Below, one piece after another: positions 227 to 36,059 of a stretch of DNA of 43,017 bases. Under the pieces are notes generated by a model. That model did no database searches and was not told the origin of the DNA. It was given only the letters and a program-made list of their open reading frames with translations. How positions within the stretch are numbered: position 1 is the first letter of the stretch; every line of letters begins with the position of its first letter. Location of the stretch: contig NW_025214728.1 in assembly GCF_004010195.1 (NCBI RefSeq), positions 1-43,017 on the forward strand, read 5' to 3'. This stretch comes from Chiloscyllium plagiosum. Its lineage: Eukaryota. Made by a program: the position numbers and the translations under genes.

Positions 227-616
227 GTAAACATCCAGAAAAGGGCCAGAAGTAGACCACATTCACCTGGAAGTGAAATTTGTCTCTTGATCTTAACAAT
301 ATTAAGGGTCACATTCGCACTAGGTGTTAATTTGATTATGAGTGCAAAAGAAAAAAAGATTATTACTAATTTTTAGTTGCACTCTTTTCATCTCAGAACT
401 GCAATGCAAGGTGGTTGCTTTTTTTAAAATCATGGATTAAATTCTGTCAAGTAAGTAGACTAATGACATAGTACTGCAACATGAAGGGGAGACAAATATA
501 TGTAAGGTTTACTGGAGGTGGGCGGGGGGGGCGGAAATCACTCGAAAGATCACTTCAGTTGCCTCATTTAAGATGAAGCACTTTGGTCTGCATTTTGTCA
601 CACTACACTTTTATAA

Positions 617-839
617 AGTTAAAAATCACAACACCAGGTTATAGTCCAACAAGTTTAATTGGAAGCACACTTGCTTTCAGAGCGACGCTCCTTCATCAGG
701 TGATAGCCACTATCACCAGATGAAGAAGCATCGCTCTGAAAGCAAGTGTGCTTCCAATTAAATCTGTTGGACTATAACCTGGTGTTGTGATTTTTAAACT
801 TTGTACACCCCAGTCCAACACCGGCATCTCCAAATCATG
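617..839 (+). mobile_element. Short palindromic non-autonomous Penelope-like element (inverted pseudo-LTR) with hammerhead cores
   Basis: About 90-bp inverted arms (617-706 and 710-~802) around a CCA loop, an asymmetric tail GTACACCCCAGTCCAACACCGGCATCTCCAAATCAT, and TSD ACTACACTTTTATAA (602-616) / ACTACTCTTTTATAA (840-854). Confidence 0.75.
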
Positions 840-1019
840 ACTACTCTTTTATAAGCCTTACATTAAGCAGAAACTAATAGTGCGCTGGACAATTTGTTCC
901 TTTTTTCATGGTTGGCTTCCTGCACAATATAAAATGGCTTCATATAAAATTACACAAGCAATTCCAAGTTACAAAACGTTACTGGAGTCACAGTAACTAT
1001 CTGCTGTCTGTTAGGCAAC

Positions 1020-5380: not shown

Positions 5381-5396
5381 TTTCTTGGCTTGAAGC

Positions 5397-5610
5397 TAAA
5401 AATCACACAACGCCAGGTTATAGTCCAACAGGTTTAATTGGAAGCACTAGCTTTTGGAGCGTTGCTCTTTCATCAGGTGGTTGGTATGACAACCGCCTGA
5501 TAGAGCGGTGCTCCAAAAGCTAGTGCTTCCAATTAAACCTGCTGGACTATAACCTGGTGTTGTGTGATTTTTAACTTTGTACATCCCAGTCCAATACCGG
5601 CAACTTTAAA
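5397..5610 (+). mobile_element. Short palindromic non-autonomous Penelope-like element, copy 2
   Basis: Same family as 617-839; arms around a GTATGA loop (5484-5489); perfect 14-bp TSD TCTTGGCTTGAAGC (5383-5396 and 5611-5624). Confidence 0.8.
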
Positions 5611-5679
5611 TCTTGGCTTGAAGCAACATCTTAGTAGTGCACAAAACCATTTCTGTATCTGCTGCAAAGTGGCAAGGTG

Positions 5680-6132
5680 AAAGACACAGGAATCAAAATA
5701 GGCTATTCAGCCTATCGAGTCTTCTCTGCCATTTAATGAGATCTTGGCTGATCTGATAACCGTCAACTCCATTATAATACCTTTTCCCTTAATCCTTCAG
5801 AAAAATCTAACTCAGTCTTGACTATACTTATCAAACCAGCTATGACTCAATGACACAGCCTTCTTCAGCAAAGAATTCCACAGATTCACTACCCCGAGAA
5901 AGGAAATTCTTCATCTGTCTGAAATAGTGCCCCTTTAACTTAGATTATACCCTCTCGACTCACAAGGAGAAAACCACCTTTCCACAACTACCCTATAAAG
6001 CCCCCTAAAATCTTTGTCTGATATATAAGGTGATCTCTCACTAGGAACAGGCCTGACCTATTCACCGACTCCTCAGAAGATAGTCTCTCCATAACTGGGA
6101 TCAACCGAGTGAACTTTACTACTCTGGACTAC
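5680..6132 (-). mobile_element. CR1 LINE 3' portion, interrupted by the PLE at 6133
   Basis: Reverse CR1 tail (AATAGGCTATTCAGCC, GAATTCCACAGATTCAC = VNLWNS); continues after 8736. Confidence 0.75.
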
Positions 6133-6184
6133 AACCGCCTCCGCAATCGCCAGGAAGACCATCGCCGACAGATTCGCAGCCTCC

Positions 6185-8267
6185 GTGGGGCCCACATCCA
6201 CCGGGAACAACACCGTTTCTGCCGTCGCCGCAAACACTTCCGCCCCTGGAGTTGCCATCGCCGCATCTACTTCCGTCCCCAGTGACGTCACTCACCTGAA
6301 CAACGACCATGCCACATGCGTCTCCACCCCCATGCCGATCTCCACCCCCACAACCAACTCCGCCCCCACGCCTAGCTCCAGCCCCACACCAGGTCCTAGC
6401 TCCCAGCCCTGCCATATTTTCACCATCCCTCCAGACCTCCCCCTCTCTGAGGACGAAAGATCAGTCCTCAGCAGATGCCTCACCTTCATCCCCCTATGCT
6501 CCCGGATTAATGAGTTCAACACGCGGCGAGACATCGAACAATTCTTCTGCCGCCTTCGGCTCTGCGCCTACTTCTCCAACCAGGATTCTCGCCCACCCTC
6601 TGACGACCCCTCTTCCCGCCTCCAACACACCCCATCCACCTGGACACCCCGTGCTGGTCTCTTACCCACCCTCGATCTCTTCATAGCGAACTGCCGCCAT
6701 GACATTAACCACCTCAACCTGTCCACCCCTCTTACCCACTCCAACCTCTCACCCTTGCAACGTGCAGCCCTCCACTCCAACCCCACCCTCACTATCAAAC
6801 CAGCAGACAAGGGAGGCACGGTGGCAGTTTGGTGCACCAATCTTTACATTGCTGAGGCTAAACGCCAGCTCGCGGACACCTCCTCCTACTGCCCCCTTGA
6901 CCATGACCCCACCTCCCACCACCAAACCATCATCTCCCAGACCATCCATAACCTCATCACCTCAGGGGATCTCCCATCCACCGCCTCCAACCTCATAATC
7001 CCACAACCCCGCACCGCCCGTTTCTACCTCCTGCCCAAAATCCACAAACCTGACTGCCCCGGCCGACCCATTGTCTCAGCCTGCTCCTGTCCCACTGTAC
7101 TCATCTCTGCATACCTCGACACGGTCCTGTCCCCCTTAGTCCAAGAACTCCCCATCTACGTTCAGGACACCATCCACGCCCTCCACCTCCTCCATGATTG
7201 CTGCTTCCCTGGCCCCCAACGCCTTATCTTCACCATGGACATCTCATCCCTATACACTTCCATCCCCCATCACAAAGGCCTCCAAGCCCTCCGCATCTTC
7301 CTTTCCCGCCGAGCCAGCCAGTACCCTTCCACTGACACCCTCCTTCGACTGACTGAACTGGCCCTCACTCTGAACAACTTCTCTTTCCAATCCTCCCACT
7401 TCCTCCAAACCAAAGGAGTAGCCATGGGCACCCGCATGGGCCCCAGCTATACCTGCCTCTTCGTCGGATATGTGGAACAGTCCAACTTCCGCAGCTACAC
7501 TGGCACCATCCCCCATCTTTTCTTCTGCTACATCGATGACTGTATCGGCGCTGCCTCGTGTTCCCACGGTTGAACAGTTCATCCACTTTACTAACACCTT
7601 CCACCCCGACCTCAAATTTACCTGAATCGTCTCAGACTCCTCCCTCCCCTTCCTAGACCTCTCAATTTCTATCTCGGGCAACCGACTCAACACGGACATT
7701 TACTATAAACCGACTCCCATAGCTACCTAAATTACACCTCCCACCCTGCCCCCTGTAAAAACGCCATTCCATACTCCCAATTCCTTCGCCTCCGCCGCAT
7801 CTGCTCCCAGGAGGACAATTCCACGACCGAACAACCCAGATGGCCTCCTTCTTCAAAGACCACAATTTCCCCTCAGACATGGTCGACGATGCTCTTCACC
7901 GCATCTCCTCCACTTCCCGCTCCTCCGCCCTTGAACCCCGCCCGGCCAATCGCCACCAGGACATAACCCCACTGGTCCTCACCTTCCACCCCACCAACCT
8001 CCAGATACATCGTATCATCCTTCGTCATTTCCGCTACCTCCAAACAGACCCCATCACCAAGGATATATTTCCCTCCCCTCCTCTATCAGCATTCCGGAAA
8101 GACCACTCCCTCCGCAACTCCCTCGTCAGGTCCACACCCCCCACCAACCCAACCTCCACTCCTGGCACCTTCCCCTGCAACCGCAAGAAATGCAAAACTT
8201 GCGCCCACATCTCCCCCCTCACTTCCCTCCAAGGGCCCAAGGGATCCTTCCATATCCACCACAAATT
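6185..8267 (+). pseudogene. PLE reverse transcriptase to start of GIY-YIG ORF, frameshifted
   Basis: IKPADKG, FYLLPKIHK, PGRPIVS, TMDISSLYTSIP, QTKGVAMGTRMGPSY and YIDD in ORF 6185-7573. Frameshift after CSH, an in-frame TGA near 7623, then a continuation in ORF 7840 (PLVLTFHP, TFPCNRKKCKTC). Confidence 0.88.
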
Positions 8268-8364
8268 NNNNNNNNNNNNNNNNNNNNNNNNNNNNNNNNN
8301 NNNNNNNNNNNNNNNNNNNNNNNNNNNNNNNNNNNNNNNNNNNNNNNNNNNNNNNNNNNNNNNN
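8268..8364. other. Assembly gap (N run) inside the PLE nuclease region
   Basis: Run of N. Confidence 1.
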
Positions 8365-8610
8365 AGGAACCCTCCAACCACAAGGGATGAATGCAGATTT
8401 CTCCAGTTTCCTCATTTCCCCTCCCCCCACCTTATCTCAGTCCCAACCCTCGGACAGCACCGCCTTCGTGACCTGCAATCTTCTTCCCGACCTCTCCGGC
8501 CTATCACCCTCACCTTACCTCCTTCCACCTATCGCATTCCCAACGCCCCTCCCCCCAAGTCCCTCCTCCCTACCTTTTATCTTAGCCCTCTTGGCATACC
8601 TTCCTCATTC

Positions 8611-8638
8611 CTGAAGAAGGGCTTATGCCCGAAACATC
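8611..8638 (+). ncRNA. Minimal type I hammerhead ribozyme-like motif at the PLE 3' end
   Basis: CTGAAGA-A-GGGC-TTAT-GCCC-GAAAC-ATC; the stem III palindrome ACGT appears mutated to ACAT. Confidence 0.65.
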
Positions 8639-8735
8639 AATTCTCCTGCTCCTGGGATGCTGCCTGACCTGATGCGTTTTTCCAGCAACACATTTTTCAG
8701 CTCTAATCTCCAGCATCTGCAGTCCTCACTTTCTC

Positions 8736-10820
8736 CTGGACTACCATCAATGTCAGTATATCTTTGCCTGGATAAGAGGATACTCAAAACTGTTTGCATC
8801 ATTCCAGCTGTGGTCTTACTAGTGCATTGCACAGTTTTAACAAATTTTATATTCCATTCCTTTTGAAATAAAGGCACAACAATCCCTTTGTTTCCTTATT
8901 ATCTGCAGAACTTGTATGCTAGTTTATTTGTAGTTTATACATAAGAATTTCCAAAATCCAAAAAGCTTTCTGTCATCTTTCTCCATTTAAATAATATTAA
9001 GCTCCTCTATTCTTCCTGCCAAAAAGCATAACCTCATATTTTTCCACATTAAATTCCATCTGTCAAGTTTATGCCCACTTCCTTAACCTGTTTATATCCT
9101 TCTGCAGAACGTATCCTCTTCAGCACCTGCCTTCCCAACCATTTTTGAGTCAACCACAAAACATAACTACAGAATATTCATTTTCCTCATCCAAGTCATT
9201 TACATATATTTAATGAACAATAATCCCCAACATTAGTCCCTGTGGCATTCCAAGAGATACACGTTGACATCCTGCAAATGTTCATCTCTCCCAAGTCTGT
9301 CTTCTATTAACTACTCAACCCTCTACCCATGCTGACATACTAGTTTCAACACCATGGGATCTTATTCAGCTTCAATGTGTGCTACATTATCAAGTGCCGT
9401 CTGAAAATTCAGATATATTACATCCAATTATCTCTTGCTTGATTCTCTGTCATATACTATAGCTGCTATAACTATTCCTACCAGTCTTTTCTTCCCCTTT
9501 TTACTTCTTACCTCCAATGATGTGGACTCTGCATCTTCCAATCCAAGATCATTTTTTACTATGATACATATTCCATTTCATACTAAGAATGCTAACTTTA
9601 TCTTCATGCCAGTCATTTTGAAAAGTTACATATCCCTAAATATTTAGTTCCTAGCTTTGATCTTTTTACAAGATGTCCCAGTAATGACTAATCATATCCA
9701 TAACTTCTATTTGCAACGTTAATTCATTTATTTTGTTCCAAATATTACGCGCAAGTAAAAAGCCAATACTTTTGCCTTTTTACGGTTTCCTTTTTTCTTT
9801 GACGCAGTTTATTGCTGTTTTTCTATGTTTGTTCACGGTCTCTTCCCGTCACACACTGGGTATTATTTTCCAAAATAGCTGCCCTGTAATTCAACCACAT
9901 CTCATGCTTTGTGAGCCTACATTACCCATTTCCCAAACCCTGCGCCTTTATTAATTAGTTTGAAGCAGCCTTTGTTAGTTGATTCTTCAGCATAGTTCAA
10001 GTGAAGCCCGTCCCATGGAGCACCTCCAATACCAGTGCCAGTGCCCCAGCAAATGAAACCCATTTCCTTCCGAACCCCTCGCCACCCCCACACTAATCTT
10101 TAGGCTGTTCATTGAGTTGATTTAGTTTATGCCAGTTTACCCATGGCTCAGGTTGTAATCCAGAAATAATTAACTTCAAGATTCTTTGTTTCAATTTAGC
10201 TTGTAAACGTTCAAAATCTTTGAGCAGAATCTACTTTTTATTCCTATCACTGTTGTTAGCAACAACATCAAATACATCAGCAGGATCCTATCCTTTCCAT
10301 TCTAAGTTCTTCTCCAGTCATAAGAAGCTGTCCTTGCCCCAGATAACAGGCAGCCAGCATAACCTTCACAACTCCTGCTCACTGCTGCTGAGAACAGTAC
10401 CCATCCCCGTAATGAGCTTGTCCCCAACCACCACGATGTTCTTATTTGCTACCCTCGGGAGCCATGAACGACTTGAGTGCTTTCCTGTTCCAAGTGACTT
10501 GGTCAGTTTGCTCATCCGTCTGATATCTCCACTCAGTTTGCAAGAGCCTCACCGGGCAATTTAGGGGCCAAAGACCTTCGACTGTAACTTCCTAGGTTCC
10601 CATACATACCTCACATGCAATCACACCTTCCTGTTGCTGATCAAAAACCAATTTTTAATTATTTAATTTGAGGAATATTTCATTTGCTCTCTGAAGCAAA
10701 GAGTCCAGGTAACTTTCCCCTTCCATGATGCGTCACAATAGCTGCAACTCAGACTCCAACTCCTCAAACTGGATCCAAAGTTTATCAAGCTGCAAACACT
10801 TATTACAGCTAACTTCACCT
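8736..10820 (-). mobile_element. Continuation of the old CR1: RT, endonuclease and ORF1 remnants with internal deletions
   Basis: MEFNVEK-like (9040-9060), NARNI (about 9742-9756), and ORF1 zinc-finger/zipper CNKCLQLDKLWIQFEELESELQ on the minus strand at about 10743-10808. Confidence 0.65.
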
Positions 10821-33500: not shown

Positions 33501-34699
33501 CTGACAAAATTTCCCCAATAGTGCAGCATCCCATTTCCTTGTGCATTTGATGAGGACTTGGGAATATTTATTTCCATTAAATGCACTCTATGAAGAAACT
33601 CAACCTCATAACTGAGGTGTCTGAGTGTTTTCAAAAGCTAATGGTATAGCGCATCAGCATAAATGTACAAGGAAAATAGGACCAAAATGAAATAGATCAG
33701 AACAGTTTTGGAAAAGCACTCAACAATCACACAAGCAAAATGATTCCATAAATAAGACATTTACTGCTGCTTCCTAACACAGCTTTGAATAAACTGAAAA
33801 ACCTATACTATGTACTAAAACACTCAAAGTTGAATTTTGCTGATACAAATGATATTGAATTCCAGTCAGCCTCTGTTACATCAACTTTGAATGTCAACTG
33901 AACATCACTGATAATGACATTATTGTGGTTCATTGATCACCACATAAAATTCATGAATCCTTCAATTGTAGCCACAAACTGAGCTAATAGTTAAAACTAA
34001 TCCTTTAGGACAAAGTTCTAAAGTTAAAAGAGGGTAAAATCTTTTCACATTCATTTTTACAGGACTTGAAAGAAATTAAAGGTCCACAGTTAACTGAGTG
34101 AAACAAACAGATCTACATGTTTTTTTTTTTCAGCAGTTTCTCTCCGGAAAGGAAATTCATATTAGTGACAGGTCAGCTTGTGATATTCTGTCTTCACAGC
34201 AGAAATCTGACAGGTCAACAAAACTTGATCCGTCAGTGCAGGGTATCAGTCCCAAGCACCACCTGTCATCTGCCTTTGACAGACCTCCAGCGTCCTCCGT
34301 CTGGGGGTGGATTTCAAGAGGCACATTAAAAACACACACACACCAGTAGGATCGCCTACTCTACACAAATACACACTGACAGCCAAGTCACTACTGATCG
34401 GGGCAGTAGGATTGGCACCGACGGGGTGAAAACCACATACAGACACGGTAAAACATCCTCCCGTTAAAACAAAACACGATGGACACAGACGCATTTACAG
34501 TAACAGGCGGAGGTGGGGTAAGGGGGAGTGGGCTGGGCTGACCTCGACCCCCCACCACCACCACCACAAAAAAAAGGAGAAAAATTAGAAAGGCAGCCCG
34601 ATTAAAACGTGCAGGAGGAGAGTGACCGTTAAATAAACTCTTGACGGGGACACAGGCTGGCACGGCACTGAAGAGCAAAGGTGAAACACGGCGCGGGGT

Positions 34700-35460
34700 A
34701 AACCGGCTCCTTGGATCCGGGGCTGGTTTCCGCTGCGTGGCCTCGCACACTGCGTGGAAAGTAAGGCATCCCCCACGGTGTGCGTCTGCACGGTCACACT
34801 CCCTGGGCGTCCATTTGACGGTGAACTCACCACTTGGTAGCGACTGCAGGCCTCCATCGCTCTCTCTCGCTGCCTCGGCGTCCGCCTCTCACAAATGTCC
34901 GTTAGCCGCAACTCGGTCCCGGGATCCTTTCCCTGCCGCCCGAACTCGGTCCTCCTTTACCCTGCTTTCGAATCCCGCTTCCTTTTCTTCCTAATCTCTT
35001 CACACACACTCTCTCTCTCTTTCTCTGTCACACACGCACTATTCCAGCACTCGGCCGGACGATTCGAAAATCAACGATCCGCAGACACGGACACACAAAC
35101 AAAAAAAAAATCCCCCGGCTCTGCGCCTGCGCGAACCCAGCCGGCACGGCCCTTTGTGACGTCTCGCCTCCAGCCACGGAACCAAGGAGAGGCGCGGCCG
35201 GGCTGTCCCCGCCCACTTCCTCGTCGGCCACGCCCTTTCGCCCGCAGGCCACGCCCCCTCACCGCCGACTCGTCAGCGGAGCTCCAGCCCAGGAAGAAAT
35301 GTTCCGTGACTAAGCGAAGATGTTGCTGTGGTGAGCAGTTTCCTTTGGACTTCCCCTGCTGGAAACATTGCGCCCTGAGGTGGGGTTTACCCCAGAGAGC
35401 GCCAAATCCCCTCCCCCTCAACCCAACTCTTTAAAACAGGAAAAACAGCAAAGCCGTACG
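34700..35460 (-). promoter_or_regulatory. CpG-island promoter of a minus-strand gene
   Basis: High CpG density against a CpG-depleted background; NRF1-like GCGCCTGCGC (35123-35132), CRE-like TGACGTCT (35157-35164), Sp/KLF boxes CCCCGCCCAC (35207-35216) and GGCCACGCCC (35226-35235, 35247-35256), ETS-like ACTTCC (35215-35220). Confidence 0.85.
34831..34857 (-). CDS. Coding part of the first exon, MEACSRYQV (unidentified gene; could be a uORF)
   Basis: Strong Kozak context GCG-ATG-G, 9 codons, then a consensus donor GTG|GTGAGT (34830-34825), immediately downstream of the promoter motifs. Confidence 0.6.
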
Positions 35461-35629
35461 TTAGCCGCTGGTTCTGAATCGAAAGAAGGGTGAAACTTTT
35501 TCTCTCTCTTCGAAGGATGGTCTTGGTTGAGCTCCCTGACCTAGCTCTTTTAGAAACATTATTTTCTGCTTCACCCGTTCTCCTCTTTGGTCTTCCACTG
35601 TCCCAAATGCATGTCCATGCATCTTTCCC

Positions 35630-36047
35630 GTGATTTGGAGGAGCCGGTGTTGGACTGGGGTGTACAAAGTTAAAAATTACACAACACCAGGTTATTGTCC
35701 AACGGGTTTAATTAGAAGCACTAGCAATGGGCGGCACGGTAGCACTGCTGCCTCACAGCGCCAGAGACCCTGGTTCAATTCCCGCCACAGGCGACTGTGT
35801 GTGGAGTTTGCACATTCTCCCTGTGTCTGCGTGGGTTTCCTCCCACAGTCCAAAAATGTGCAGGTTAGGTGAATTGGCCATGCTAAATTGCCCGTAGTGT
35901 TAGGTGAAGGGGTAAATGTAGGGGAATGGGTCTGGGTGGGTTGCGCGTCGGTGGGGACTTGTTGGGTCGAAGGGCCTGTTTCATCAGGTGGTGAAGGAGC
36001 AACGCTCCAAAAGTTAGTGCTTCAAATTAAACCTGTTGTGTGATTTC
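35630..36047 (-). mobile_element. Palindromic PLE-derived element, copy 3 (reverse orientation), disrupted by an HE1 SINE
   Basis: TGATTTGGAG..CCGGTGTTGGACTGGGGTGTACAAAGTTAAAAA is the reverse of the copy 1 tail; the second arm is at 35983-36046; possible TSD TCTTTCCC (35622-35629 and 36050-36057). Confidence 0.7.
35729..35982 (+). mobile_element. HE1 SINE with small deletions and no tail repeat
   Basis: GGGCGGCACGGT..GGTTCAATTCC, V-domain, ends at GAAGGGCCTGTTTC. Confidence 0.88.
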
Positions 36048-36059
36048 TGTCTTTCCCAC

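Follow-up and report, generated by a model that had tools for sequence, protein, structure and literature searches.

The window analysed here, a 43,017-nt stretch of DNA from Chiloscyllium plagiosum, contains a short palindromic insertion in three copies (e1, e2 and e3), and we conclude that each of these palindromes is probably one integration product, in its shortest form, of an endonuclease-bearing Penelope-like retroelement (PLE). That the palindromes originate from PLEs, be it as fresh minimal insertions or as a family that copies itself, is highly likely. The layout of terminal repeat, tail and inverted terminal repeat is already described for PLEs, and four features of PLE insertions are found together here: a minimal type I hammerhead (in the consensus of sequencing reads), a tail of 30–40 nt, a head-to-head inverted copy and target site duplications (TSDs) of variable length. 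The palindromes look like a known kind of PLE insertion in its smallest form, and no new kind of element is needed to account for them.

Structure of the palindromic insertions

Element e1 is an insert of 223 bp at 617–839 (Table 1), in which two inverted arms of 88 nt each (619–706 and 710–797) are 94% complementary: the arms differ from one another at 5 positions and by one 1-nt indel, and are separated by a loop of 3 nt. Folded as a hairpin, e1 reaches −141.5 kcal/mol (z = −23.9), and 0/200 shuffled sequences folded equally well. The TSD of 15 bp is identical at 14/15 positions, and the hairpin element of about 220 bp with a 15-bp TSD that had been reported in a preliminary description from the sequence is thus confirmed. 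A tail of ~41 nt with 68% A+C is borne by the right side only. Both arms contain a degenerate minimal hammerhead: in the long arm, stem II lies at 725–737, the GAAA box at 738–741 and the predicted cut after 745, and the exchange U16.1>A in this motif suggests that the ribozyme is dead; in the short arm, the motif carries the exchanges C11.1>U and U16.1>A, and stem I contains 2 inserted nt.

BLAST and nhmmer searches identified e1, e2 and e3 as the only copies within the window. The second copy, previously placed at 5397–5610 with a perfect 14-bp TSD, was recovered as such by the TSD search; its centre loop measures 6 nt (5484–5489), and G12>A is found in both of its arms. The third copy had been placed at 35630–36047: this copy is real, but it ends at 36049, has lost its centre and carries a SINE-like insert, and a perfect 8-bp TSD can now be added to its description. 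The short arm of e3 exhibits a 17-nt deletion, whilst its long arm is interrupted by the insert (a repeat that we take to be a SINE), which occupies the place of stem II and the GAAA box of the long-arm hammerhead. In one and the same search, random position pairs reached the TSD score of e1 or e2 in 0/1490 cases and that of e3 in 15/1490 cases. The tail of e1 is complementary to two partly repeated arm stretches (tail and arm positions concerned: 767–788 and 812–825), so that two alternative stem-loops are possible; the best tail/arm fold of e1 is unlike that of e2 and e3, and the 17 nt missing from the e3 short arm lie between the repeated stretches. As for the surroundings, the window contains many LINE-like fragments in both orientations, presumably of CR1-type LINEs, together with several SINE-like repeat copies, and e3 is located at the edge of a CpG island (34250–35750; maximum GC 0.61, maximum CpG observed/expected 1.11) that is probably a promoter.

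Table 1. Features of the palindromic insertions and of the RT-encoding element in the window (strand: +, −, or. where none applies).
Feature	Position	Strand	Basis or remark
e1 TSD, left copy	602–616	.	14/15 match to 840–854
e1 short arm, inverted terminal-repeat copy lacking the tail	617–706	−	arm alignment
Degenerate minimal hammerhead, short arm	668–702	−	CUGAUGA intact; position mirrored from the right arm
Head-to-head centre loop, 3 nt	707–709	.	7 nt upstream of each hammerhead core
e1 long arm, highly likely terminal repeat of a Penelope-like element	710–797	+	arm alignment, read contigs
Degenerate minimal hammerhead, long arm	714–748	+	stem I CAC 714–716, core 717–723 (U4>A)
One-sided tail, ~41 nt	798–839	+	family 3' ends pile at 837–839
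e1 TSD, right copy	840–854	.	TSD search
e2	5383–5624	+	palindrome 5397–5610 between perfect 14-bp TSDs 5383–5396 and 5611–5624
e3	35622–36057	−	copy 35630–36049 between perfect 8-bp TSDs 35622–35629 and 36050–36057
SINE-like repeat within e3	~35729–35980	+	3'-truncated; no TSD of its own seen
Separate 5'-truncated Penelope-like element of another family	6124–8744	+	RT + GIY-YIG type, 9-bp TSD

TSD length is not fixed amongst the three window copies (15, 14 and 8 bp; n = 3), and a tail of ~38–41 nt is present at one end in 3/3 of them. These properties bear on the possibility that the palindromes are MITEs of a DNA transposon whose inverted repeats resemble a hammerhead by chance, as might be suspected of sequences that are short, non-coding, palindromic and very abundant, one of them (e3) having an 8-bp TSD. 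A standard DNA MITE is excluded by the variable TSDs in combination with an inverted repeat that misses one terminus, stopping ~40 nt before it, and the short end is itself variable: the probability that we would assign to such an origin is negligible. The earlier claim that the elements were retrotransposed, and did not arise as DNA transposons, is supported by the TSD lengths, by the one-sided tail of ~40 nt and by the existence of two classes of ends in the family (see below). The AT content of the three TSDs is 80, 50 and 50%, and a preference for AT-rich targets is therefore not supported (n = 3). At the short end, the target equals the continuation of the element at 11/15 positions over the three copies (p ~0.001–0.003, post hoc).

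The TSDs are also informative with respect to a different scenario, in which single-arm PLE stubs would have turned palindromic after insertion through template switching during replication. Palindrome centres are unstable, that of e3 having been lost, and the sharing of variants between arms suggests local copying; however, 3/3 copies exhibit a TSD around the whole palindrome together with a short arm that ends at a family-wide site, and a later rearrangement would respect neither the TSD nor the short-end site. We hold this scenario to be extremely improbable.

Abundance and ends of the family in public sequencing runs

Part of the stretch is contained in 20/24 listed public runs, of which four, from four coded organisms, were used, with one arm of e1 plus its flank serving as the query. 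None of the 20 is recorded as RNA, which says nothing about expression. The numbers of matching contigs in these four runs were 29732, 35578, 29117 and 5811, and the ratio of summed contig depth to flank depth, which is not a copy number, amounted to 2.4e5 for run X1 and 3.5e5 for run X2; abundance was therefore judged by the contig counts alone. The hairpin inserts are real and very abundant. Their long ends pile up at 837–839 (458, 753 and 454 contigs at 837, 838 and 839, respectively, in run X1), and the flanks of these long ends are unrelated to each other, with an agreement of ~0.35 (24 of the 688 loose-end rows listed). A second class of ends is found ~40 nt upstream, where the loose-end consensus at 789–797 runs to ~803 before agreement is lost. 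The A/T-rich consensus of the loose ends was not read as a target preference, since mixed flanks of an AT-rich genome give the same result, and the fall in depth toward the palindrome centre was left out of the analysis because it is biased by the mutations of e1 itself.

Joints between element sequences involve the same regions: one side lies at 787–808 or 836–842 in 14 of the 15 joints listed (27 in total) and in 11 of the 12 listed (14 in total) of a second joint set. Short ends joined directly to tail ends were seen in 4/4 runs, and could represent tandem palindrome units, but would equally agree with nested insertion at sites that bear ATT. Element ends are also often joined to the internal sites 748–769 and 787–797, both of which contain ATT, and these joints read as nested insertion into older copies. 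ATT has been reported as the preferred cut of PAc, the Poseidon element of Anolis carolinensis (PMC11167929).

Among the 15 joints listed, one contig from run X7 exhibits a head-to-tail junction, from 842 to 707. Such a junction would be compatible with a retrozyme-like origin, in which small hammerhead RNA monomers are cleaved, circularised and reinserted by the PLE machinery. Animal non-LTR retrozymes, which occur in a cartilaginous fish, are described as non-coding, as carrying type I hammerheads and as derived from PLE terminal repeats, properties in which the palindromes resemble them (Li et al. 2026, bioRxiv 10.64898/2026.07.22.740005). Retrozymes are however defined in that source by tandem head-to-tail units, whereas the palindromes are dispersed head-to-head pairs with TSDs and the window copies are inverted in 3/3 cases. 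Furthermore, the unit ends ~93 nt downstream and ~35 nt upstream of the cut site (745) and not at the cut. A retrozyme-like origin consequently appears very unlikely to us.

The 3' junction of e1 (818–1000) was recovered from organism A without any difference and from organism B with 5 differences, so that the insertion appears to be common to both; neither the run from organism C, of which 73% was read, nor that from organism D showed this junction. The run from organism D, X16, whose assignment as RNA is a guess, yielded a contig of 1817 nt (depth 256) that starts in the arm and extends ~1.7 kb past the tail, and this could represent a transcript of either the parent or the host. Over positions 738–809, X16 exceeded the three other runs in 8/11 rows for T>C and A>G changes and in 4/22 rows for other changes (p = 0.002; based on 33/39 rows, after removal of four rows private to e1 and two from the flank). 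The excess hints at A-to-I editing of the hairpin, in a comparison where the organism differs, the RNA nature of the run is guessed, the rows are pre-selected and several of them lie within an indel-shifted stretch.

The hammerhead motif

An intact hammerhead core is present in 0/6 arms of the window, in agreement with the core mutations that had been noted for all copies. Scanning of both window strands with a relaxed hammerhead descriptor gave 0 perfect hits and 1 unrelated hit with one mismatch, and the Rfam search returned 6 matches up to E = 1, none of which was a hammerhead: the top-ranking match, to a microRNA model, stayed below the threshold of that model, and the microRNA matches reflect the hairpin only. 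A search for tRNA genes found none. With no intact arm in the window, the motif had to be examined in other copies, namely those of the public runs, and here the loose-end consensus before position 748 contains an intact hammerhead core in 4/4 runs. The 30-letter consensus from 4/4 runs comprises CUGAUGA, one extra A, a stem II of GGAGC/GCUCC with a 3-nt loop, GAAA, GC and UA; completed by the CAC/GUG of the window as stem I, it corresponds to the min-HHR consensus of PLEs published by Cervera and De la Pena (NNN CUGANGAH G..C GAAAN palindrome UH NNN; PMC4209133). The features held in common with metazoan min-HHRs are CUGANGA followed by an extra base, G10.1–C11.1, a stem II of 5 bp, GAAA, a palindromic helix III and a stem I of 3 bp. 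The GAAA-GC-UH helix III of the family consensus recurs in four rows given by Cervera and De la Pena, and the motif of a shrimp PLE closely resembles this consensus; the family sequence itself is absent from the min-HHR rows listed there, amongst which there is no shark entry (PMC4209133). The fit of the read consensus to the published motif thus supports the earlier proposals of a PLE origin and of a minimal type I hammerhead that contains a palindromic AGCU. That the family consensus fits a descriptor without any perfect hit on either strand of the window also argues against the chance resemblance that a DNA MITE would require.

In the predicted fold, stem II forms with P ~0.93 and stem I with P ~0.19, and a rival hairpin covers the cut site; for the dimer, the hammerhead-shaped fold reaches −17.7 kcal/mol versus −27.9 kcal/mol for the best alternative dimer. 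As modelled, the weak stem I and the dimer folds fit the low or protein-assisted cleavage that is reported for min-HHR motifs (PMC4209133, PMC11167929). The two hammerhead cores of a palindrome are only ~17–20 nt apart. Owing to the head-to-head arrangement of the arms, a transcript of either strand would have the sense hammerhead preceded by its own complement, and this hammerhead is predicted to fold into the long stem: buried in this hairpin, it should not allow the palindrome to cleave. The claim of a ribozyme core on both strands consequently holds for the DNA, but not for the transcripts, in either of which the sense hammerhead would fold into a long hairpin. On inspection, no reading frame opens in the arm hammerhead, and all three frames stop within ~60 nt.

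Search for a parent element

Scans with an exact pattern of 24 nt from the arm yielded 0 hits amongst the contigs of viruses, metagenomes and prokaryote genomes, and a second, degenerate arm pattern gave 0 hits in metagenome contigs. The RT element of the window (6133–8735) was considered as the parent of the arms and was rejected, the best local match being one of 13 nt with E of at least 0.4. This element belongs to another family (Table 1): it exhibits a Pfam RVT_1 match (E 1.2e-6) just under the curated cut-off, has relatives with RT and GIY-YIG at up to 54% identity, and contains frameshifts and a stop as well as an assembly gap (8268–8364). A decayed hammerhead-like motif of its own is located at 8611, at a distance of 125 nt from the 3' end of the element, to be compared with 122 nt from core to end in the palindrome family, and no inverted arm was seen for this element. 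The pattern scans and the comparison with this element thus linked no parent with an RT ORF to the arm, which speaks against the palindromes being minimal PLE insertions. Our search of the literature, with Repbase and Dfam lying outside its scope, found no description of this sequence family or of an abundant, ORF-free palindromic form; PMC5753468 and PMC8969392 contributed nothing specific.

Origin of the palindromes

In the PLE insertions described to date in PMC3846280 and PMC8557442, an inverted, 5'-truncated copy lies beside the upstream repeat, one end carries a tail of 30–40 nt, and there is a TSD; Pen2a_Av has a TSD of 9 bp and an inverted repeat that is shorter by 37 bp. Inverted terminal repeats and a 34-bp repeat are reported for Penelope of Drosophila (PMC2377424), and opposite-strand pairs of min-HHRs 100–700 bp apart have been noted in metazoan PLEs (Cervera and De la Pena 2014, PMC4209133). 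The palindromes resemble insertions of EN+ PLEs with an inverted pLTR in their head-to-head repeat, palindromic junction, tail and variable TSD. They differ in that nothing lies between the repeats, the total length being 214–223 bp, and in that they exhibit no ORF and are very abundant, whilst the PLE examples described in these sources keep part or all of the ORF. [quoted passage not shown] 2024, PMC11167929); the distance from stem II to the end is 114 nt here versus +111–118 in PAc. In vitro, uncleaved RNA serves as a template for PAc, both strands are cut and extended, and hammerhead mutants do not block insertion (PMC11167929). PAc also differs from the present family: its ORF begins in the hammerhead, whereas no frame opens there in the arms, and its priming is reported to be homology-free in vitro (PMC11167929), whereas the short ends here exhibit microhomology with the target. 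The microhomology as such speaks for our preferred explanation; the two differences from PAc count against it.

If the palindromes are minimal integration products, their formation may be pictured by analogy with PAc. The GIY-YIG nuclease of the element would cut the target in a staggered manner, 8–15 nt apart, and reverse transcription would start internally at an A/C-rich site ~114 nt downstream of the hammerhead stem II. The RT would then copy ~130 nt, through the uncleaved (or religated) hammerhead, and stop 7–13 nt upstream of the core. Each arm continues past the predicted cut site for ~35 nt, which implies a template that was uncleaved or religated. The mirror arm would be made in the same insertion and would end ~40 nt short, with the tail being left as a result. 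As to how the mirror arm would be primed, the second cut end and fold-back of the first cDNA, the latter proposed from junction palindromes by Arkhipova et al. 2013 (PMC3846280), appear to us evenly balanced. Priming from the second cut end naturally explains the two fixed ends, fold-back of the first cDNA explains the variants common to both arms, and the microhomology of the short end with the target allows either. The hammerhead would in this process be an inherited cargo of the terminal repeat that is silenced by the hairpin in the palindrome, whilst its activity in the parent RNA probably depends on a dimer or on the help of a protein. The palindromic insert itself is most likely inert DNA.

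An alternative is that the whole palindrome constitutes a non-autonomous family: a genomic hairpin copy would give rise to a read-through transcript, ribozyme-dead or not, on whose single-stranded tail a PLE protein acting in trans would prime the copying of the entire unit. The e1 arms exhibit 5 common departures from the read consensus (731, 737, 744 and two 2-nt indels) versus 6 private ones, and both arms of e2 share G12>A, which speaks for this alternative; the very high abundance (5811–35578 contigs per run, four runs) and the joints of short ends to tail ends in 4/4 runs point in the same direction. There is precedent in the ability of PLE terminal repeats to mobilise sequence in trans (PMC3846280) and in the existence of non-autonomous PLE derivatives (PMC8557442; bioRxiv 10.64898/2026.07.22.740005). 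The common departures of the e1 arms, which would agree equally well with a fresh mirror copy, with arm-to-arm conversion and with a palindromic source that has decayed, count to that extent against minimal insertions. However, many other joints listed have their second side at 748–769 and thus read as nested insertion. Ordinary PLE insertions give the same layout (PMC3846280, PMC8557442), a second RT start site accounts for the clustering of the short end, which read-through copying does not, and the 88-bp hairpin would need to be unwound. Finally, the centres of e1 and e2 are unlike, differing in both sequence and loop length. These are the only two intact centres in the window, that of e3 being deleted, and the read contigs break off before the palindrome centre; with two centres only, two subfamilies of a fixed palindrome could also account for the difference, which weakens the case for minimal insertions. 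Copying of the whole palindrome through a read-through transcript is on balance a somewhat unlikely explanation, and it seems unlikely that the palindrome is now the mobile unit, in the sense of a ribozyme-dead or ribozyme-masked hairpin RNA of ~220 nt that is copied in trans by the PLE protein. Of the earlier suggestion of a non-autonomous PLE derivative, the derivation from PLEs therefore stands, whilst copying of the unit itself is the less likely reading: the layout is that of an ordinary 5'-truncated PLE insertion, and the centres differ.

Implications for Penelope-like elements

Repeat annotators can mistake these hairpins for DNA MITEs or microRNA precursors, and ready-made hairpins of ~88 bp could feed RNA editing or small-RNA pathways. 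If the palindrome did copy itself, it would represent a retro-MITE class with tens of thousands of copies or more, and its two ends would record priming from both cut strands, making it a natural read-out of PLE integration. A family of minimal products bears on the formation of the inverted repeats and tails of PLEs: as such products are very many, with long ends that are fixed, short ends that cluster and centres located just upstream of the hammerhead, a computational comparison of two-ended priming with fold-back becomes possible.
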